Part shown: in pieces, positions 47,645-57,875 of the stretch
Position numbering within the stretch: position 1 is the first letter of the stretch
How the letters are laid out: every line of letters begins with the position of its first letter
Source: a virus
Reading direction: 5' to 3' (one strand)
Length of the DNA stretch: 64,000 nt
Virus record (IMG/VR): IMGVR_UViG_3300003177_000010
Location: 48,795 to 112,794 of that record
Translations under genes and position numbers: made by a program
Notes under the pieces: model-generated
Databases searched by the model: none
Seen by the model: the letters and a program-made list of their open reading frames with translations, nothing else
What the model was told of the DNA's origin: nothing

Positions 47645-48061
47645 TTATCCAAATACTTCTTTTAACTTAAAAGATATAGAGTAGTAACTAGCTAACAAGT
47701 TACTACCCGTGCTTTCGACATGTGATACAGACAAACCACCAGCAAAACGTACAGTAACGTTACCAGTCTCTCCTATATGTGATAAGTCTAAGGTAAAAGA
47801 TTCAAAATCTCCATTTCTGTTATTATAAAAAGTTTCAATAGCATTTTTCTGTAGCCCCGTAGCATTAGTGTAAGTTAAAGTATAGTCTCTCACGGGTCTT
47901 CTAGATCTAAGCCTTCTTTTTTCATATCCAGCATCTGTACTAAATACTATAGTAGAAAAAGACTTAGTATAGCTATGGCCTTTATCTGGCGTGTAATCCG
48001 CCATAGAAGAGAAAGAATCTGTAGAGAATATTCCTATGGCATCTGAAGGGTAATAAGCCAT
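47645..48061 (-). CDS. distal tail protein (gpM/DUF2460-like)
   Basis: GYEKRR, FYNNRNGDFESF, VRF, LKEV; follows the tape measure. Confidence 0.75.
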   Translation of the reverse strand: MAYYPSDAIGIFSTDSFSSMADYTPDKGHSYTKSFSTIVFSTDAGYEKRRLRSRRPVRDYTLTYTNATGLQKNAIETFYNNRNGDFESFTLDLSHIGETGNVTVRFAGGLSVSHVESTGSNLLASYYSISFKLKEVFG

Positions 48062-51000
48062 TAAACTACTGCCCCTCGTATAGATTGCTTAATAGGACCA
48101 TTATTAGCTATATCTTTTGTTACTATATCTATAATCCACTTCTTACCATCAAACTTAGGAGCAGAAGCAGTAGCCTCTTGAGGAGTACCATTATTAACTA
48201 CATTAACTTGTACGTTACCGTGGCTACTTATATTACCAGTAGCATTTAGTTCTTGCAAAGCAGGGGCGCCTAAAGCTTTAGCTATAGGCTTACGCAGCAT
48301 AAATTCCCCGGGTTCTGCTAATAAAGGTATTCTATCTCTTACGGCACCGCCGCCAGCAAATTTCTGAATAACTCCTCCAGAAGCTTTTTTACCTATACCA
48401 AATAGACTTCCTATAAATTTACCTATGAAACTCAGTATTCCACCTCCTCCGGTACTTTTACCACCGAATAAACCTCCTATACCTTTGAATAAGTTTGCAA
48501 AAAATCCCTCTTTACCGAATACTTTTGCAAAGAATTTACCTATAGAACTATCTTTACCTATTAGGCTTTCAAGAAGTGTTTTATCACCTTTAGCTCTTTT
48601 ACCAAATAAGTTAAAAGGGCCAGTATTTTCTGCACTAGTCACAGGGACCGCACCATTAACTAGGGTCACACTATCAATACCTCTTTTTACCCCAAATAAT
48701 TTACCTACAGAATTAGTAAGAAATTTAGCTGTAGGGTCTGCAATAGTTGACTTAAAGAAATCTTGTTGAATTGTTTTAAATAAGTTACTCATTATTGACC
48801 TAAAGTCTCCTTGCCCATAGAATATAAGGTCATTTAGACCCATAAGAGCGGAGTTAAAAGCTCCTTCTATATTATCAAATAAGCTTTTAACTTTTTTCAT
48901 AGCGCTAGATAAACCTGTAGAACCTCCAGACCCTCCAGAACCTCCTAAGGTATCAGCAAGAGCAGCAGTACTATTAGCTGCTGAATCTTGTATCTCCTGC
49001 AGCTTAAGTTCAAGCCTAGCTCTTTTTTCTACTCTAGCTCTATAAGTATCAGCACTACCAGTTATAGTACCATTAATTTGCTCTTGTATGTTAGCAATTT
49101 TAGTAGCAGCATTCTCATTAATTGCTGTTATTTGAGCATTTATTGAGTTAGCCTGAGCTGTTCTACTTGCGTCTAAAGCAGTAGTGGCTGATGCACCAGC
49201 AGTAGCTACTTGAGTTGATATACTAGTAGGAGTAACTTTACTTATATTACCTTTTAACCTAGGGTCTGCATCTATGTAGCTCTGTAGTACATTACCTAAA
49301 TCTTTAACACTCTTACTAAAACCATCCACTCCCTTAGCAAAAGAAGTATACCCTTTAATTTGTTCCTCAACTATACTAGCAGCTATTCTATTATTAGCCT
49401 CATCAGCTCTAATCTTAGCGATGTCTAATGCTTTTTTAGCCCTAATAATAGCTATCTCATGCTCTTTCTTAACTACTTCGGCTAACCCTCTTGCTGCTAT
49501 ATTTTTAGATTCAGCGTCAAATATAGCTAACTGAGCATCAATAAATGTTTTCTTACTATTAGCATCAGTAGCTATAAGTTCTTTTTGTGCTGCAATAGTA
49601 TCATGATTTTGAGAGTTCATAGCACTAACTACTATGTTACTATAATCTTCTGCCGCTGCTCTAACACTAGGGTTGCTTATTCCTATAGTTAGTGAAGATA
49701 TCTCATTAGCTATAGCGGACTGTCTATTAGCTACAACTGAAGGATCTAGTTTTTTATTCTTAGCTAAGTCTATTGATGCCTGTGCCTCTTGTCTTATTAA
49801 ATCTACACGTTGCTGATCCGTAGAAAGTCTAGAAGTAGCTAAATCATTAGTAGCCTGCATATGCGTTAGGTTATTAGCACTTATAGTTTCTAACTTAGCG
49901 TAGTAGTTAGTTAAATTTTCTAAAGAATGGGCTTGTTTTTGAAGTGCAAGTTGTTGCTCTAGCTGTCTAGTGTGTTCTTTTTCTTTAGTAACTATATCAT
50001 TTAAAGACTTAATACTATTAACTTGTCTACCTACAATAGCTTTCAACGTAGTTGAATACACCTCAGCTTCAGCAACTTGATTAGCATCTAGTTTTGCTCC
50101 TGCTTCCTGCAATCTAAAAGATTCTCTAGTTCTATCTAGTATAGACCCTAATAAAGATACTTGATTAGCTAAGATTTCTTTACTAGATTTAGCAAAATTG
50201 CCAGTACTATTAATTAGCCCTCCATACGTTAAAGTATTAAGTGCATTAATACCTTTAGAAAATGTTTTAGTAATATTTTTAAATATATTTTCAGTAGCAG
50301 CTAATTTATCTCTTAGTACTACATTAGCAGCTATAGACTCTCTTAAACTTGCTGTATAATTGTCATACACATGAACTGCTTGGTCAATAGACATACCGTT
50401 GTTAATATTAGCAGTAATGTTATCCTTAACTGCAGCTATCTGGTCTAATAACTGCGATCTAGCACCTGATATAGCCGCAGACATTTTATCTGCTGTAGTG
50501 GCACCAGCGTAATAAGCATCTGATAGTTTATTCATAGTGCTTGTGCCAACGAACCAAGCTTTAACAAGTTTCTTTTGACTCTCCGTTAGAGAGTCAAAAG
50601 AAATAACGCCATTGTCACCAACACGGGCAACTAATCCTCCAAATAATTCTAGCTGCTCATTAATTACTTGTAGCTTTTTAGAATCTAATACTGCAAATAC
50701 ATCTATTGCAGATAAACCAGTTAATGTAGCAATTCTACCTGCAAAACTATCAAGTACTCCTCCATATTTTTCAAGACTAGTTATATAAGTTTGTAATGCT
50801 AGGTTTTCTATCTTTAGATTAGCAGCTACTTCTAAATCCTTAGTTACATTTATACTATCCACATTATCTGCAATACGAGCTCTAGCAGCTTCAATTTGCA
50901 TAAGTACAGGGCTTACTGCTCTAGCTGCATTTAACATAGGAATAAAAGCCTGTCTAGCCTTAGCACCTGCTTCCTTAGCTAAATTACCTGCATTATCCCT

Positions 51001-51666
51001 AGTACTAAGATTATTACTATTAATAGCAGCACTGTAAGCTAAAGAATTAGCAGAAGCTGCAGCATCATTCATATCTAATGTTATTCTATTGATGTTCCTA
51101 GTTATAGCAGAATTAGCAGAAGAATTTACTGTAGCTACTACATTTTCGTACGTAGTAGCAAAACCAGCAATTTGGTCTTTATTAGCTCCTAACTCTTTTA
51201 GCTTACTATTTAGTAGTTCTACACCCCCAGCAGCAGCTGTCATAGCACCTAACATACCGTCTTTAAAATCTGCAGCAGCTTGAGAGGTATCAACAAAATG
51301 GTCTTTTATAGCCTTAAGAATATCAACCCCGAATATATCACCTATTAATTGTATAGCTCCAATAATAAAGAATAATTTATTCATTGCAGATGCAGCAAAA
51401 TTAGCAACTGTTTTTAGTTTATTTAACCCAGCTGCCATTAGTATAGACCCTTTTGTAAATAACTTAGCTTTAGTACCTGCTTGTTTTAATGCTTCTTCAT
51501 AAGTTTTTAACATAATAGTATTACTGTGTAAAGCAGCATCAAAAGAAGCCATTCTATCTGCAGGTATTTTACTCTTTAAACGTAACATTTCTTTTTCTAC
51601 TTCTTTAAGCTTAGCTATGTCAGTAGTCATTTGGGTTGTGCTAAATAGTTTAACATCACCATTCAT
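48061..51666 (-). CDS. tape measure protein, C-terminal part
   Basis: Ala-rich helical; C-terminal FAGGG..RDRIPLLAEPGEF and VNVVNN motifs. Confidence 0.85.
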   Translation of the reverse strand: MNGDVKLFSTTQMTTDIAKLKEVEKEMLRLKSKIPADRMASFDAALHSNTIMLKTYEEALKQAGTKAKLFTKGSILMAAGLNKLKTVANFAASAMNKLFFIIGAIQLIGDIFGVDILKAIKDHFVDTSQAAADFKDGMLGAMTAAAGGVELLNSKLKELGANKDQIAGFATTYENVVATVNSSANSAITRNINRITLDMNDAAASANSLAYSAAINSNNLSTRDNAGNLAKEAGAKARQAFIPMLNAARAVSPVLMQIEAARARIADNVDSINVTKDLEVAANLKIENLALQTYITSLEKYGGVLDSFAGRIATLTGLSAIDVFAVLDSKKLQVINEQLELFGGLVARVGDNGVISFDSLTESQKKLVKAWFVGTSTMNKLSDAYYAGATTADKMSAAISGARSQLLDQIAAVKDNITANINNGMSIDQAVHVYDNYTASLRESIAANVVLRDKLAATENIFKNITKTFSKGINALNTLTYGGLINSTGNFAKSSKEILANQVSLLGSILDRTRESFRLQEAGAKLDANQVAEAEVYSTTLKAIVGRQVNSIKSLNDIVTKEKEHTRQLEQQLALQKQAHSLENLTNYYAKLETISANNLTHMQATNDLATSRLSTDQQRVDLIRQEAQASIDLAKNKKLDPSVVANRQSAIANEISSLTIGISNPSVRAAAEDYSNIVVSAMNSQNHDTIAAQKELIATDANSKKTFIDAQLAIFDAESKNIAARGLAEVVKKEHEIAIIRAKKALDIAKIRADEANNRIAASIVEEQIKGYTSFAKGVDGFSKSVKDLGNVLQSYIDADPRLKGNISKVTPTSISTQVATAGASATTALDASRTAQANSINAQITAINENAATKIANIQEQINGTITGSADTYRARVEKRARLELKLQEIQDSAANSTAALADTLGGSGGSGGSTGLSSAMKKVKSLFDNIEGAFNSALMGLNDLIFYGQGDFRSIMSNLFKTIQQDFFKSTIADPTAKFLTNSVGKLFGVKRGIDSVTLVNGAVPVTSAENTGPFNLFGKRAKGDKTLLESLIGKDSSIGKFFAKVFGKEGFFANLFKGIGGLFGGKSTGGGGILSFIGKFIGSLFGIGKKASGGVIQKFAGGGAVRDRIPLLAEPGEFMLRKPIAKALGAPALQELNATGNISSHGNVQVNVVNNGTPQEATASAPKFDGKKWIIDIVTKDIANNGPIKQSIRGAVV

Positions 51667-52691
51667 AATTTACCATCATACTTTTTACTAATATCTTTTT
51701 TTAGCTTTACGACTCCTTTGCTAATAACATCAAAGCTACCTTTAGAAGCAGCTGCATTATTAGCTACACTTTCTGTCCATTTTATACCTGAGTCTATCAT
51801 ACTACTAAAACTATGTCCAATCATTTTAGTAGCTTTATTGAATACTACAGCCCCTAAAATACCAAAAGCTAATAATGCGTTACCCGCATCATTAGTTATG
51901 AAGTCTACAAAAGGAGCTATATAGTTAGCTAATACTTGACCAAAACCACTAGCCATATTTGCGATTTCAGTAGCTAGCTGTTGTAAAGATTTTTGAGCAG
52001 ATGCTGAAGATACATTAATAGAGCTAAATTTTCTGTCACCTTCTGCAATAGTCGCGTTAACAAAAGCTTGTCTACGTTCAAATGTAGAAAGAGAATTAAC
52101 ATTTACACCTAACTGCCTAGCATATGCCTTAGCTGCAGGCTGTATTCTAACAAATATACCTAATTCATCTAATAGTTCCGGTTCTAGTTTAGCAGTACCA
52201 CGTATAACACGTTGCATAGCATCAGTAAGGTTCCTACCTAAAGCCCTAGAAGCTCTCATAGCAACTCTAGTAACCCCTTCTAGCTGTTTAGTATTAAAAC
52301 CAGCAGATAAAGCAATGTTAGCGTTCTGTGCTGCCTCGGCTAAAGTAAGTTGTCCTTGTGTAATATCTTTAATAACTGCTAGTATAGCAGGGCCACTTTG
52401 CCCTACCTCAGCAGCCAAGGCGTTTGTACCTCTTACAATAGTTTCATTCTGTGCCGCTTTATTAAGAGCAGTAAAGGCGGCAGTAACAGCAAAAATAGTC
52501 GCAGCCGCACCGGCATAAGCGCCGACTAAGCCGCCTAAGCCAGATGCTTGAGCAGAAAAAGATCTACCAGCATTAGAAGATTCGTTAGCAAGTCTAGTCT
52601 GTTTCTTACTAATCTCTTCGGTATCGCTTTTAACTTTACTAGCGCCTTTTGACGTGAATAAAATTTCTACTATGTTACTAATTGTGCTCAT
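51663..52691 (-). CDS. tape measure protein, N-terminal part
   Basis: GRSFSAQASGLGGLVGAYA, ALGR...GTAKLEPELLDELGI (T5 pb2-like). Confidence 0.85.
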   Translation of the reverse strand: MSTISNIVEILFTSKGASKVKSDTEEISKKQTRLANESSNAGRSFSAQASGLGGLVGAYAGAAATIFAVTAAFTALNKAAQNETIVRGTNALAAEVGQSGPAILAVIKDITQGQLTLAEAAQNANIALSAGFNTKQLEGVTRVAMRASRALGRNLTDAMQRVIRGTAKLEPELLDELGIFVRIQPAAKAYARQLGVNVNSLSTFERRQAFVNATIAEGDRKFSSINVSSASAQKSLQQLATEIANMASGFGQVLANYIAPFVDFITNDAGNALLAFGILGAVVFNKATKMIGHSFSSMIDSGIKWTESVANNAAASKGSFDVISKGVVKLKKDISKKYDGKL

Positions 52692-53040
52692 TTTGTTTTG
52701 CAGAACTTTCTTTTTGTTTTTGTTTATAGTAATTGCCTAATACTACTTCTAACTCTTTAAGTCTTTCAAAAACCTTTTTTCTATTTTCTATTTCGTATAT
52801 GTCCATTATAGCTAATAAACCACTATAATCTTTACCCATCCAGCTACCACTCATACCTTCCCATAGATCAGGTAAGTAATTTAATAGTAGTATAGCTTGT
52901 TGAGACTCTATAGGTAAGGAAGAGGGGTCAATAGGAATTTCCTCTTCTTTAGGCTCCCAACCCATTTGGCTACACATGTCAAAATATTGTTCTATACTCA
53001 TACCTCCACCATTTAAAGAATTATGGAGGTATTTTGTTAG
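52678..53040 (-). CDS. tail assembly chaperone, frameshift extension (gpT-like)
   Basis: -1 frame open from the slippery site through KLTKYLHNSLNGGG into MSIEQYF. Confidence 0.8.
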   Translation of the reverse strand, partial: LTKYLHNSLNGGGMSIEQYFDMCSQMGWEPKEEEIPIDPSSLPIESQQAILLLNYLPDLWEGMSGSWMGKDYSGLLAIMDIYEIENRKKVFERLKELEVVLGNYYKQKQKESSAKQNEHN

Positions 53041-53046
53041 TTTTTT
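53000..53046 (-). other. programmed -1 frameshift signal
   Basis: A AAA AAC at 53046-53040 directly before TAA, 7-nt spacer, stem ATACCTCCA/TGGAGGTAT. Confidence 0.85.
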
Positions 53047-53468
53047 ACTTCTTCCGCATCCTTAAGTGTAGAAAACTCTTCATAATCATTCATAGCGTCG
53101 GTTACGAATTGATCAAATATTGAAGAATTCTTCAATAGGTCTAAAGCATCTTCTTCAGAAAAAGGTATCTCTTCATCCGCATTTAGATTAGATATATCAG
53201 CAGGCATTAGCTTAGGTAAGGTACCTATAGTAAGCCCTCTCCAATTAATTATAGCTTTTTTTGCGTAGTTACTTAAGAATTTATCAGTATCTACTTCTTC
53301 CTCTCTTTGCCTAGTCTTTTTACTAAACTTGTACTCTAAACTAGCTTTTTGGATTTTCTGTAGATGTTCTCTAGTTAGAAATTGTAATTCTACTTCAAAA
53401 CCGTCAGTGTCTGGAACTTCCATCCAGCTTGTTGCGTTATTTGCAACTGCGTTACTTATAATACCCAT
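53037..53468 (-). CDS. tail assembly chaperone (gpG-like)
   Basis: between tail tube and tape measure, acidic; ATG 53468 has SD GAGGA. Confidence 0.8.
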   Translation of the reverse strand: MGIISNAVANNATSWMEVPDTDGFEVELQFLTREHLQKIQKASLEYKFSKKTRQREEEVDTDKFLSNYAKKAIINWRGLTIGTLPKLMPADISNLNADEEIPFSEEDALDLLKNSSIFDQFVTDAMNDYEEFSTLKDAEEVKN

Positions 53469-53485
53469 GTATTCCTCATAAAAAT

Positions 53486-53579
53486 GAACGCCCATTAACA
53501 TATCTGCTTTTCTAAGGTGAGGGGAGACCTAGAATTGCAAGTTAACGGGCGTTCTCTGTTAAAATGTTGTCCCCCCTCA
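53486..53579 (-). ncRNA. cis-structured RNA, interleaved stems (pseudoknot or switch)
   Basis: A-B-A'-B' arrangement of 11-bp and 14-bp stems, each closed by G-U only on the mRNA strand. Confidence 0.65.
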
Positions 53580-53587
53580 GAAACTTA

Positions 53588-54856
53588 TTACTTAGCGGCT
53601 ACAATTGTAACCTCACCGCCTGAGCCACAGGTTGCTCCAGGCTCTTGGCCTATAAAGTCAACTGTGACAGCTACCACATCACTAATATCTAGTTTAGGAA
53701 AACTAAATTGACAAGCATCTAATTGAAATGCTACATAAGGGGCTGTAGCGCCCCCAATAATAAGATTAGCATTAGAAGTACTTGCAGAGCTAGTCCTACC
53801 GTCATTGGCTATATTTCTTAAGAATTGAGCAGATTGACCGTTACCAGCTCTAAGGTACATAGTTGCAGAGCCGGATACTGCTCTAGTACCTGTAAATTGT
53901 CCTATAGGCTCATTTAGGTTACTTAACTCCTCAGGAGTTAAGTAACTTATATTATTATTATAGTCGAAGGTTAATGCCGTAACGGGGAATGTATAAGAAA
54001 CGTCGGCACCTCCTGCAGAAGGAGTGTGATGAAACTCAATAGCACTTAGTCTATTTTTAATAAAGGAATTAGTAGCTATACTACCAGCTACATTCATCTG
54101 ATTATACGGATGGTAGGCAGAAGAAGCTGATAACTCACTCACATTTGCATTAGCTAGTACAGTAGCTCCACTATTTAATATACCACCAAATACTGATACA
54201 GCATTATCTCTAGGGGCACCGGTAAGCTCTCTTAAGGTAGTACCAAAACCTGTCCATGTTACCGTAGAAATAGCGTCAATACCTGCGTCTACAGTAGCTT
54301 GGTTAACCGTAGCATTAGCTACTTGATAGAATATATTATCTAATTTTAAGTATAAATGATTTTCAGTAGCAGTTGAGAAATTAGCTCTAGTCGAGTGAGA
54401 ACCAGCTCCAGCAGCCACATTTGTAGTCTGCAACTTACCTCCTGTAACCCATACAGACTGGTCCGACGTGCCATCAGATACTCTAGTATTAGATACTAAC
54501 GACTGCCATAAGAACCAGTCAGCAGTAGGTTTAACATTACCACTAGCAGAAGTACCTGTAGTCGACCCTCCAGCAGCTGCACCAGTCTGAACTCCTGTAG
54601 GTCTTATATATGTTTGAAGGTTCCAATCCACTGGATCTATAGAAGTGTTGAAACGTTGTTGCGACCTATCAGGGGATAAGCCTGACTCTAAGGTAGTTAT
54701 ATCTTGTGTAGCTGCAGAAGAAGTGGCTGCAAAACCACTTAGAGCTTCTATCTTCCAAGTATTTTGTGGGGTCATAGCAGTAACAGCAGCGCCATTAACT
54801 AAATCAACTGTTGAGAAAAATATCTCGGAATTTCTTTGTAAATTAATACATGACAT
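53588..54856 (-). CDS. major tail tube protein (T5 pb6-like)
   Basis: NLQRN, NTWKIE, RFN.S.DPVDW, NNISYLTPEEL, FTGTRAVSG; position. Confidence 0.85.
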   Translation of the reverse strand: MSCINLQRNSEIFFSTVDLVNGAAVTAMTPQNTWKIEALSGFAATSSAATQDITTLESGLSPDRSQQRFNTSIDPVDWNLQTYIRPTGVQTGAAAGGSTTGTSASGNVKPTADWFLWQSLVSNTRVSDGTSDQSVWVTGGKLQTTNVAAGAGSHSTRANFSTATENHLYLKLDNIFYQVANATVNQATVDAGIDAISTVTWTGFGTTLRELTGAPRDNAVSVFGGILNSGATVLANANVSELSASSAYHPYNQMNVAGSIATNSFIKNRLSAIEFHHTPSAGGADVSYTFPVTALTFDYNNNISYLTPEELSNLNEPIGQFTGTRAVSGSATMYLRAGNGQSAQFLRNIANDGRTSSASTSNANLIIGGATAPYVAFQLDACQFSFPKLDISDVVAVTVDFIGQEPGATCGSGGEVTIVAAK

Positions 54857-54867
54857 GTTTTGTCTCC

Positions 54868-55323
54868 TTAATCTTCTAGTCTATAGACTATTGATAAATT
54901 TACGTTTAATACCCCATAAGGGCTAATCAGACCTTCATCCATCGAGATACTTTCTATAGTTATATCTAGTATTCCTTTTTCTGAGGCTTCAGGAAGATTA
55001 TATATAATATGCTCTATATCTTCAGCTAAATCATCTGATAGTTTCTGAGAATTATCTTCCCCATATACGTATGCTCTTATAATAACCGTTAATGTAGCTA
55101 TAGTCAAATTTTCAGATTGAAAATTTCTAAATTCGGTACCCGCGTTAAGGTATAGAGAAGGGAAATCATTTACCTCATCAATGAATTTTAATTTACGAAA
55201 TACATTATTAAAAATATTAGAATTATAAGAGTAACTGTTATCATATAAAGAAGTGCCTCCATCTATATTTTTTAAATTATTAACAAGAAAATTTATTATA
55301 TCTGTTCTTCTAGATACTGTCAT
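54868..55323 (-). CDS. tail terminator (T5 p142-like)
   Basis: RRTDI, FIDEVNDFP, DIEH, DEGL; synteny. Confidence 0.75.
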   Translation of the reverse strand: MTVSRRTDIINFLVNNLKNIDGGTSLYDNSYSYNSNIFNNVFRKLKFIDEVNDFPSLYLNAGTEFRNFQSENLTIATLTVIIRAYVYGEDNSQKLSDDLAEDIEHIIYNLPEASEKGILDITIESISMDEGLISPYGVLNVNLSIVYRLED

Positions 55324-55324
55324 A

Positions 55325-56521
55325 TTATACTCTTACTATATTAAACTTACGTGTATACAGAGAGGTAACTACTTCTCTAATAGAGTTACTAACTTGAGTT
55401 TCCGGGTCGTAACCATATTTTATATTAGCATCATATAAAGGCATGTAAGTAAAACGTATTAAACTATTACGATAGTTTGGGTATACTGTTATACTACTCC
55501 TAAATCTACCGCTTCTTTCTGTAAACCATGGTGGGGTAGCTTTACCACTTTTTTTCATAGTTTTATCTAACCTTTTCTGTACTAATGCAGTAAGCTGAGC
55601 GCCTGAAATAAATGTCTGTCTATTATTCTTTTTGGTAACTTTAGTAGAAATCTTACCTTGCTTAGGCTTTATAATCTTAGTACTATAATTTATAGGACGT
55701 TTTTCAAATTCATTAGCTATTCCTATAACAGCAGATAAAAAATCATAGGTATGTTGAGTAGATCTGCCCTTAGTAAACCTAACTAAAGCATCATTTATAA
55801 ATCTACTAGAAATATTAGTACTTAGTGCTTTATGGAATTTTATAGTAGTACTTGTTATACTAGCTATAACTTTAGCGTAACCAGCGTCACTTAAAGAGTA
55901 GTATAAAGTTATTCCTGATTTAGTAGGTTTAGCTGTTATACTTAAGTACTCTTCTGTAACTATATTACTAGAGTTTAATAGTCTAGTAACTAAGGACCCT
56001 AGTGCTTTATCTCCTATATTACTTTTATCTAAGTAATTCTTATTAAATAAATTAGAAAATTTTTGTGATATTTGTTTAGTTACTATTTTTTTTATTTCAT
56101 TATTACTGTTAATATAATTAATAAGCTCTACGTTAGATAACTTGTCTACTCTAGTATTCTTATCGAAGGTAAAACCATTTTTATTTTGTGTAGCAGCTAT
56201 ATTATTAGCTTTATTAAATGAAACACTATCTGAATTACTTAAAGAAATAGGAGAAAAATATGTTTTTTTTACTTTACTTAATGTATCAAATATATCCTTG
56301 GTGTTAACATCATCAGAAAAACTAGATGCGCTAGGGGCAGTAAAAGGACTTTCTGCAGCTATAAAATCAGAAAAATACCTTAATACTAAGCTTCTTGCCT
56401 TTTTGTTACCTCTAGAAGCTTTAATTAACGCTTGTTTATTTTTGCTAACAAATAGTTCTACAGGTAGCCCGTCAATAGTTATCTTAGTATCTACCAGACT
56501 AATATGATTATTTTTTGTCAT
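55325..56521 (-). CDS. tail completion / neck protein (T5 p143-like)
   Basis: basic; C-terminal ERSGRFRSS, Y...YD, SIREV; synteny. Confidence 0.65.
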   Translation of the reverse strand: MTKNNHISLVDTKITIDGLPVELFVSKNKQALIKASRGNKKARSLVLRYFSDFIAAESPFTAPSASSFSDDVNTKDIFDTLSKVKKTYFSPISLSNSDSVSFNKANNIAATQNKNGFTFDKNTRVDKLSNVELINYINSNNEIKKIVTKQISQKFSNLFNKNYLDKSNIGDKALGSLVTRLLNSSNIVTEEYLSITAKPTKSGITLYYSLSDAGYAKVIASITSTTIKFHKALSTNISSRFINDALVRFTKGRSTQHTYDFLSAVIGIANEFEKRPINYSTKIIKPKQGKISTKVTKKNNRQTFISGAQLTALVQKRLDKTMKKSGKATPPWFTERSGRFRSSITVYPNYRNSLIRFTYMPLYDANIKYGYDPETQVSNSIREVVTSLYTRKFNIVRV

Positions 56522-57795
56522 TACATTATAGTTCTATACATATCTAGTACTCTTCTTACATGGGGAGGGAAGTTGGAAGATAAGCTGTAAGATGCGCCTT
56601 TTTCTCCACTAAAGGTGAACCCCTTTGAATTCTGCGTCTGCTTATATAATATCTTTATATAGTCAAGAGTAGCTAATTTAATATCATAAGGTACTTCATT
56701 AATTTCATACCCAGCTCTATACGATATCTTTACACCAGAACTATAGTTATTAAACGCAGTAGTAGGTAACAATGATAACGTTGGATTACCGTAATTTTTA
56801 CTTATTCTGCCTGATCCACGAGAAAAGGTAAAATCACTAGGAGTGCTATGACAGTCCTTAAATGAGTCATCAAAGTGAAATAATACTGCAGTGTCGCTAT
56901 CAGGCCTAAATCTGTGAGTAGCTGGTACAAAGTCATCTGTGTATCTTGCTATAGTAGATACTCTTAACTCATCTAAGTATCCTACTAACCCTTCGCCTAT
57001 TATTACGTTTGATGTAAAAGTTAAGTTACTTTCAGTAAAAGAAGCATTTGCTATAGTGTTACCATTATAATGTAAGTAAATTTTCTCATCATCTAGCTTC
57101 CTACTTACTGCTATATGTGCCCATTTTCTGCTACTAAATTGTTGAGACTCTACTAAGCTATTAGCACCTTGTATAGTAGTGGTAACTCCATTAACATTAC
57201 TAGTTAAGGCGATACCGTACTGGTTAGCAAGTCCTAGTGATAGATAGTTATTATTATCCGTATTTATACTAAATAAAGTATTATCACTAAGGGTGTTATT
57301 ATCAATACGTACATAGGCTTCTATAGTAAAGTCTGACTCTTCAAATTTTAGAGAGTCAGGAACAGAATTAGTATATAGTAGGTCTGAGCTAGTAAATTTA
57401 ACACTAGTATCTCCTGTTTTTTTGATAGTAGAGTATTGTGGGTCACCTAAGCTATCTAGTAGTACTGCAGGAGAAGTATTAGTAATAGGCAGTCCTAGTG
57501 TGTCAGGGTCTGCTAGTCTATTATAAGAAGTACCGTTATACTCTTCTACCTGGTACACGTTACTTAAAGGTAATCTACTAGTATATACGTATGAAGAACC
57601 CCCATCTAATACTTCAATGTAGTCATTAGCTAGAACCTCTTGGCCAATATAATGCTCGACAACTCCTGTAGCGTAGTGTATAATGTTAGATAGCCTAGCA
57701 TCATAAGTATTACTAGAGATAGCTAAATAATCAGTTACTGTAGCTAAGTCTATAAATGTATACTTTCCCAAGTTTTCTTCAAATTTATTCGCCAT
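56521..57795 (-). CDS. head completion/adaptor protein with inserted LamG/ConA-like domain
   Basis: adaptor N-terminus (DYL...D.RL...VEHYIG) and C-terminus (YRAGY...VPYDIKLA...P.HVRRVLD.YR) flank DFTIEAY/WAHIAVSR/GYLDELRVS. Confidence 0.8.
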   Translation of the reverse strand: MANKFEENLGKYTFIDLATVTDYLAISSNTYDARLSNIIHYATGVVEHYIGQEVLANDYIEVLDGGSSYVYTSRLPLSNVYQVEEYNGTSYNRLADPDTLGLPITNTSPAVLLDSLGDPQYSTIKKTGDTSVKFTSSDLLYTNSVPDSLKFEESDFTIEAYVRIDNNTLSDNTLFSINTDNNNYLSLGLANQYGIALTSNVNGVTTTIQGANSLVESQQFSSRKWAHIAVSRKLDDEKIYLHYNGNTIANASFTESNLTFTSNVIIGEGLVGYLDELRVSTIARYTDDFVPATHRFRPDSDTAVLFHFDDSFKDCHSTPSDFTFSRGSGRISKNYGNPTLSLLPTTAFNNYSSGVKISYRAGYEINEVPYDIKLATLDYIKILYKQTQNSKGFTFSGEKGASYSLSSNFPPHVRRVLDMYRTIM

Positions 57796-57815
57796 ATTAA
57801 CATCCTTTTATACTA

Positions 57816-57847
57816 ATTGGGGGAGGCGTTTTACCACCTCCCCCAAT
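57816..57847 (-). terminator. strong hairpin after the capsid gene (terminator or stabiliser)
   Basis: ATTGGGGGAGG/CCTCCCCCAAT 11-bp stem, weak U tract. Confidence 0.65.
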
Positions 57848-57875
57848 ACACGTTAATTATTTACTATTTTAACTA

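Follow-up and report, generated by a model that had tools for sequence, protein, structure and literature searches.

The spacer between the tail tube and tail chaperone genes of an uncultured T5-like phage is predicted to contain a cis-acting RNA of about 110 nt, which constitutes the 3' UTR of the tube gene as well as the leader of the chaperone gene and folds into a pseudoknotted structure around a terminator-type hairpin. This RNA is a promising candidate for a new family of cis-regulatory RNAs, and it probably sets the amount of tube protein relative to chaperone and tape measure. The main weight of the evidence lies in conservation and covariation among related viruses, not in the fold of the single sequence.

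Genes flanking the element

The window, i.e., the whole stretch of 64,000 nt that was analysed, is part of an IMG/VR virus record of 112,794 bp, which stems from an uncultured aquatic T5-like phage. The RNA element is located on the minus strand between the genes for the major tail (tube) protein (MTP) and a tail assembly chaperone (TAC), the latter with its own ribosome-binding site (RBS) containing a Shine-Dalgarno (SD) sequence:

53588–54856, minus strand: MTP gene, coding for 422 aa (phrog_3575, E 4e-46)
53590–53588, minus strand: stop codon TAA of the MTP gene; the RNA element begins directly 3' of it
53478–53472, minus strand: TAC RBS UGAGGAA, containing the SD GAGGA at 53477–53473
53468–53466, minus strand: start codon AUG of the TAC gene, supported by homology
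53037–53468, minus strand: TAC gene, coding for 143 aa (phrog_313, PF08890)

An earlier reading of this DNA made from its letters alone (the sequence-only reading) had already named the neighbours as tail tube and chaperone genes, and the profile matches confirm both assignments. The MTP shares 26–29% identity with the major tail proteins of T5-like phages (Demerecviridae). The TAC start is based on the chaperone of a related locus (L013), which is 59% identical to the window protein and starts at the equivalent AUG. The ATG at 53501 (region 53495–53501, minus strand), which the ORF finder had chosen as TAC start, was rejected; it lies inside stem B' of the element without an SD, and homology favours 53468. 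In automatic annotation, part of the RNA element is probably hidden in a mis-extended TAC gene.

On the 3' side of the TAC gene, a 107-aa chaperone-like ORF (52678–53001, minus strand) is followed by a 342-aa ORF that matches tape-measure proteins in their N-terminal part (51663–52691, minus strand) and a 1201-aa ORF with no PHROG or Pfam match (48061–51666, minus strand). Each of the ORFs across 48061–53001 overlaps the next by a few bases; the tape measure might be split, or its parts might be joined through recoding. Within the MTP coding sequence, we also observed a 35-nt near-perfect palindrome with a 16-bp stem and a 3-nt loop (53915–53949, plus strand), the antisense strand of which was flagged by a terminator scan.

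Anatomy of the intergenic RNA

The element is composed of the following parts, some of which were taken from the minimum free energy (MFE) fold:

53569–53584, minus strand: 5' hairpin P0 with GUUUCU (53584–53579), a GAGG loop (53578–53575) and GGGGAC (53574–53569) in the MFE fold
53579–53569, minus strand: segment A, UGAGGGGGGAC, forming 11 bp with A', including one G-U
53579–53572, minus strand: kissing core within P0 and motif A, UGAGGGGG
53555–53568, minus strand: A/U-rich linker from P0 to stem B with a conserved ACAGA/ACCAGA (alignments A1 and A3)
53554–53541, minus strand: segment B, GAACGCCCGUUAAC, the 14-nt 5' arm of stem B, forming 14 bp with B', including one G-U
53537–53540, minus strand: 5' arm of stem C, UUGC, pairing with GCAG at 53507–53504
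53510–53534, minus strand: apical hairpin D, in which 53534–53527 pairs with 53518–53510, with a bulged U at 53515 (MFE fold)
53528–53518, minus strand: segment A', GUCUCCCCUCA, the partner of A
53525–53518, minus strand: kissing core in the loop of D (A'), UCCCCUCA
53507–53504 and 53503–53500, minus strand: 3' arm of stem C, GCAG, and the 3'-side bulge AUAU
53499–53486, minus strand: segment B', GUUAAUGGGCGUUC, the 3' arm of stem B and partner of B
53480–53485, minus strand: tail of A and UUUUU directly 3' of stem B

The positions of A, B, A' and B' and both complementarities on the mRNA strand match the sequence-only reading exactly, and the G-U wobbles of A-A' and B-B' are pairs on the transcribed strand only. 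The same reading had described B as a simple stem with a 41-nt loop, which had to be revised, as B is the base of a compound hairpin of stems B, C and D. Because A is situated in the loop of P0 and A' is the apical loop of the B-C-D hairpin, A-A' is a loop-loop contact and not a rival of stem B. Of the large pseudoknot or competing folds envisaged before, the interleaved topology was retained, whereas competing folds are not required, since the two helices share no nucleotides.

The fold of the single sequence was modestly unusual (z = −2.3). Among 3000 dinucleotide-preserving shuffles of the 108-nt stretch, 20 contained a helix of at least 14 bp and none contained an interleaved pair of 14- and 11-bp helices.

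In the family consensus, stem B comprises 11–14 bp and stem C 3–5 bp, followed by an internal loop and stem D, whose loop of 8–12 nt holds the motif CCCCUCA. The loop of P0 holds YUGAGGGG, and a linker of about 10–18 nt connects it to the compound hairpin. P0 begins −2 to 15 nt after the MTP stop codon in all clades (median 4–5 nt) and consists of 12–13 bp in distant clades; the window combines a short P0 with a long A-A'. A' is left unpaired within the D loop in the MFE folds for almost every clade, and the 3'-side bulge is found at the same place in all clades with 4–6 nt of varying sequence. Below stem B, a conserved A-purine mismatch, the A of which belongs to the linker at 53555–53568, is followed by a covarying closing pair (AU22/GC20/GU7), and a short A-tract/U-tract extension below the stem covaries as well. 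The distance from the base of stem B to the apical loop is kept at 29–31 nt in most clades despite complete sequence turnover, which points to one fixed architecture and suggests that B and A-A' coexist. The linkers of 10–18 nt and this constant arm length bear on whether the kissing helix would fit sterically together with the nested helices.

Covariation of the helices

In the alignment A5 of 88 distinct sequences, 95.7% of the cells pair, compared to 78.5% in shuffles and 38–53% with the partners slid. Changes on both sides were observed at 30 of 37 pairs, and none of 500 shuffles reached any of these measures. The close family, evaluated on its own, likewise supports the structure. Looking for covariation or conservation in homologous intergenic regions had been proposed along with the sequence-only reading, and both were found. 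The pairs with compensatory changes in A5 were distributed over the helices as follows:

Helix B: 13 of 13 pairs
Helix C: 3 of 4 pairs
Helix D: 6 of 6 modelled pairs
Helix P0: 6 of 6 pairs
Helix A-A' (kissing): 2 of 8 pairs

G-U pairs are common on the sense strand, which indicates that the structure is an RNA on the mRNA strand. The frequent G-U pairs and the strong covariation also bear out the selection at the RNA level that had been suggested from the wobbles in the window.

The kissing helix A-A' pairs in 99.0–99.6% of the cells on alignments made without fitting to this helix. At the variable end of A-A', the changes are compensatory (GC44/AU17/GU18 in A5 and AU34/GC6 at the second pair), and the core UGAGGGG/CCCCUCA is identical in 86–88 of the 88 sequences, while every other helix is rewritten. 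This 7-bp core never varies and is therefore uninformative on covariation, and its sequence invariance is left unexplained by pairing alone. The 11-bp stem A proposed earlier is present in the window, but turned out to be a peculiarity of its lineage, the family consensus being an 8-bp loop-loop helix. Of these 11 pairs, the outer three are retained in about 75–95% of the close family, and changes at these outer positions are compensated in P0, not in A'; we therefore rejected the long stem as consensus in favour of a hairpin combined with a kissing helix of 8 bp. What actually competes with A-A' is an inward extension of P0, in which three Y-G pairs are added onto the G-run and a GAGG tetraloop is left. 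This extension can form in 96–100% of the sequences, and in one relative (L018), a single G-to-A change in A is matched in both partners.

Distribution of the element

The covariance model R1, comprising 47 distinct copies, recognised a single copy in the 112.8-kb genome of the window's virus and one in every relative having sequence at this place. Using the MTP as query, we retrieved 80 viral contigs at 65–79% identity, and a second query added about 20 more; in nearly all of these close relatives, the same blocks recur within a spacer of about 125 nt. A HMMER search against 1.8 billion representatives yielded tube proteins at 43–56% identity, and at the loci found with two of them, P0126 and P0129, the element occupies the same position and scores 32–72 bits with the model. 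Down to 43% MTP identity, the element was located 3' of the MTP stop codon in every relative retrieved, always between this stop and the TAC start and once per genome, and no other copies were detected in the window genome or in flanks of about 7 kb of the relatives. The element is spread over a large branch of uncultured T5-like phages from marine and fresh waters, with more than 750 related tube proteins in the protein collection. Two of the relatives at 45–50% identity, P0127 (854 aa) and P0136 (835 aa), have twice the usual length and consist of a tube domain (residues 1–410) and about 440 further residues, either as C-terminal fusions or as genes called through the spacer.

Scanning viral contigs with a loose DNA pattern gave, among the matches listed, at least 75 new loci, 31 of which passed the model and 44 of which were chance matches. 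All 31 of these listed loci belong to the known tube-gene family, and no element in any other genomic context was present among the listed matches from viral contigs. Four new weak matches were checked and were all located between tube and chaperone homologues. The cultured Demerecviridae Vibrio phi 3, PVo5, Aeromonas AhSzw-1 and Serratia Slocum gave no match to the covariance model, and in these four phages, the tube gene adjoins the next gene without a spacer. A nucleotide search of 50,697 deposited phage genomes returned no match to the element, and a full-text literature search retrieved no description of such an element. An Rfam search for a known family had also been suggested previously; scanning 52000–55500 against Rfam 15 at E ≤ 10 produced no match within 53460–53600. 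A mosaic junction at the element was rejected, because the TAC of the window shares 59% identity with the TAC of the close family and 51% with the distant one, which parallels the tube protein.

Terminator character

The 14-bp stem B of the window is followed by an A and a U-run of the terminator type. In distant clades, the base of stem B is GGG/CCC and is followed at once by 4–7 U in 32 of 32 sequences (mean 6.6 U in 8 nt); the run reaches at least five U in 27 of these 32. In the window's subfamily, a run of at least four U is present in 30 of 56 sequences and a shorter one in 26 of 56, a few of which have none; the window itself has five U. Compared to the loop of about 3–8 nt of a textbook terminator, stem B encloses a structured insert of 41 nt (stems C and D), and the element was not called by a consensus terminator scan. 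Because the structure is kept where the U-run is degenerate, termination cannot be its sole selected function. A putative role as attenuator fits the U-run after stem B in all 32 distant relatives and in the window, and termination is likely to be an ancestral role. Terminators annotated in the T5-like phage Slocum follow the major head gene and precede a tape-measure-like gene.

Another strong minus-strand hairpin of the window (57817–57846) is located in the spacer after the major capsid gene (57796–57875). Its stem of about 13 bp is formed by UUGGGGGAGGUG with CGCCUCCCCCAA, i.e., an SD-like against an anti-SD-like sequence, with a fold z of −4.1; a U-run is absent, and AAGGA and the AUG at 57795 come next. 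This hairpin may be a counterpart of the element at the second structural gene with very high expression.

SD-like motifs and the chaperone RBS

In terms of sequence, segment A resembles an SD and A' an anti-SD, which had been missed in the sequence-only reading, as had the frozen state of both motifs and the likeness of the TAC RBS to A. The relatives' loci (311 kb) contain GAGGGG 54 times within A, 41 times within the TAC RBS and at 17 further places, none of which is the RBS of another gene. The TAC RBS is usually A-like, and a G-rich motif is present 4–9 nt before the TAC AUG in 83 of 87 relatives, which corresponds to normal SD spacing. Its pairing with A' has a mean energy of −11.5 kcal/mol, compared to −3.9 kcal/mol for 161 other SD-bearing starts, and the accessibility-corrected energies of A-A' (−7.2 kcal/mol) and RBS-A' (−7.3 kcal/mol) are near equal. 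In some clades, the RBS is of the ordinary AAGG/GAGGA type, as in the window (GAGGA) and in L260 and L296 (AAAGGU), and the pairing of RBS and A' is weak in the window (−6.8 kcal/mol), L260, L296, L192 and L018. No covariation of the RBS with the variable kissing position was seen in the relatives. The element therefore shares with ermC-type systems an anti-SD (A') which is complementary to the TAC RBS and has an alternative partner (A), but the pairing of RBS and anti-SD is neither kept in all members nor covarying.

Proposed function and alternative explanations

Siphovirus tails contain hundreds of tube subunits and few chaperone and tape-measure molecules, and to our knowledge, it has been worked out in very few phages how the proportion of tube to chaperone and tape measure is fixed. 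We favour the idea, at about an even chance of being right, that the element acts as a leaky terminator and 3'-end stabiliser raising the tube message over the chaperone/tape-measure message, with the SD-mimic and anti-SD loops as an added layer. The B-C-D hairpin and its U-run would serve as a leaky intrinsic terminator, such that the majority of late transcripts would stop behind the tube gene and have a compact 3' end that resists exonucleases. The chaperone and tape-measure genes, required at much lower copy number, would be present on read-through transcripts only. On a more speculative level, the SD-like and anti-SD-like loops might tune the access of ribosomes to the TAC RBS on the read-through transcripts, and the 5' copy (A) might keep the anti-SD loop (A') occupied. 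On its own, a terminator and stabiliser could dispense with both P0 and the kissing contact, and it leaves the frozen UGAGGGG/CCCCUCA unexplained. The added layer, in turn, is challenged by an RBS which does not track the variable kissing pair and is ordinary in some clades including that of the window.

The frozen motifs could also represent an SD decoy and an anti-SD built into the terminator, a possibility which we regard as unlikely but rank second. They would be parts of a four-segment relay of the ermC type coupling TAC translation to MTP translation across 120 nt, in which segment 1 (the 5' arm of P0) pairs with segment 2 (A) and segment 3 (the anti-SD loop A') with segment 4 (the TAC RBS). 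Upon reaching the MTP stop, a terminating ribosome would melt segment 1, whereupon A would capture A' and free the RBS; by finishing the tube gene, the ribosome would thus flip the decoy onto the anti-SD loop and license translation of (or read-through into) the chaperone and tape-measure genes. The start of P0 falls within the footprint of the terminating ribosome in agreement with this relay, as do the nearly universal inner extension of P0, the L018 change matched in both partners, the near isoenergetic pairings of A-A' and RBS-A' and the exceptional complementarity of the TAC RBS to A'; the three-way constraint would also help to account for the sequence invariance. However, the RBS-A' pairing lacks covariation and is weak in the window and the four clades listed above, and with 12–13 bp of P0 in distant clades, a ribosome at the stop codon would melt only the outer part. 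Moreover, with stem B intact, the tail of 6–13 nt in the window's subfamily looks, from its geometry, too short to reach the apical loop of a rod of about 24 bp. The invariance of the seven core base pairs in a family whose other helices covary is typical of a site read by sequence, and it persists in clades without an A-like RBS. The frozen, SD-anti-SD-like helix might thus be the recognition site of a phage protein or of the 30S subunit, which we consider rather improbable; in the phage-protein version, free tube protein or chaperone would exert autogenous control. No candidate protein emerged, no Rfam leader or operator family matched, and the variable end of the helix behaves as simple pairing (GC/AU/GU).

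The interleaved topology, with both helices of about one turn or longer, would also be compatible with a steric antiterminator switch, in which A-A' and stem B exclude each other in time: kissing before B' is transcribed would hinder closure of the terminator and allow read-through, and A held in a closed P0 would lead to termination. P0 indeed provides an alternative partner for A, and the linkers of 10–18 nt are short relative to the rod. Yet any block would have to be purely steric, as A-A' and B share no nucleotides and direct competition would be the simpler design, and the constant arm length suggests a single architecture with both helices coexisting; we therefore think this switch improbable. 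We give a marginally smaller chance to a small RNA of about 110 nt derived from the 3' UTR and acting in trans, whose C-rich loop would pair with G-rich RBSs such as that of TAC. C-rich-loop regulators targeting SD sequences, e.g., RNAIII of Staphylococcus and LhrC of Listeria, have a layout like that of the element, in which a terminator hairpin ending in a U-tail is combined with a linker rich in A/U and with an exposed, C-rich loop complementary to the TAC RBS. On the other hand, the loop has a stronger partner in cis, and neither a promoter nor a processing site is evident, promoter-like matches being at chance level. We strongly disfavour an element acting at the DNA level or a palindrome arisen by chance: the frozen core (TGAGGGG ... 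CCCCTCA) also forms a perfect inverted repeat on the DNA, but many helix positions are G-U on the sense strand and hence C-A on the other strand, the covariation keeps pairing and not sequence, and the interleaved 14/11 pair was absent from all 3000 shuffles. Coding potential or a stimulator of recoding (−1/+1 frameshift or read-through) would require a fixed spacer of 5–9 nt from the recoding site and a frame open for extension. The distance between stop codon and helix ranges from 7 to 23 nt, not in steps of three, and stops are present in the other frames; with varying spacers and indels among relatives which are not multiples of three, we rejected this option.

Relation to known systems

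A conserved RNA backed by covariation is thus positioned exactly at the tube/chaperone junction, without an Rfam counterpart. If the combination works as a unit, it would represent a new design coupling transcription termination, mRNA stability and translation initiation, and a compact, portable part for tuning operon stoichiometry. If the ribosome-sensing relay were true, the stop codon of a structural gene would be the sensor of an attenuator fixing the stoichiometry of tail proteins.

The closest parallels are the intercistronic terminators of phage late and bacterial operons, which like the element consist of a G+C-rich stem and a U-run after a very highly expressed structural gene and before low-copy genes. 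The expected effect of such terminators or stabilisers, as for the element, is a higher level of the upstream message; the malE-malF REP and the puf hairpins are examples of intercistronic stabiliser hairpins. The element differs from them by its hairpin of about 75 nt with three stems, a conserved bulge, an A-purine mismatch and an apical loop pairing with a second hairpin. It also sets its family apart from the cultured T5-like phages, in which the tube gene abuts the next gene.

The ermC and trp leader attenuators share the alternative pairings 1:2, 2:3 and 3:4, an SD in segment 4 and a ribosome-accessible segment 1 beside a stop codon. In contrast to these, the element has no leader peptide, the "leader" being a structural gene of 422 aa, its segment 3 is located in a hairpin loop within a separate terminator stem, and its 3:4 pairing is not universal. 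The kissing complexes of ColE1 RNA I/RNA II and the HIV-1 DIS have an antiparallel, G-C-rich loop-loop helix of 7–8 bp in common with the element, and RNAIII of Staphylococcus a C-rich loop complementary to GAGG-type sequences. Unlike these RNAs, the contact described here is intramolecular and located in an mRNA spacer, and both partners are frozen in sequence. An intercistronic pseudoknot is also present in the infC-rpmI-rplT operon of E. coli, where it sets the relative translation of the neighbouring cistrons; it binds ribosomal protein L20, has no terminator tail and is related to the phage element neither in sequence nor by Rfam. The intercistronic terminator or attenuator thus belongs to a known kind, whereas the kissing-loop with its frozen SD/anti-SD pair appears to be new.
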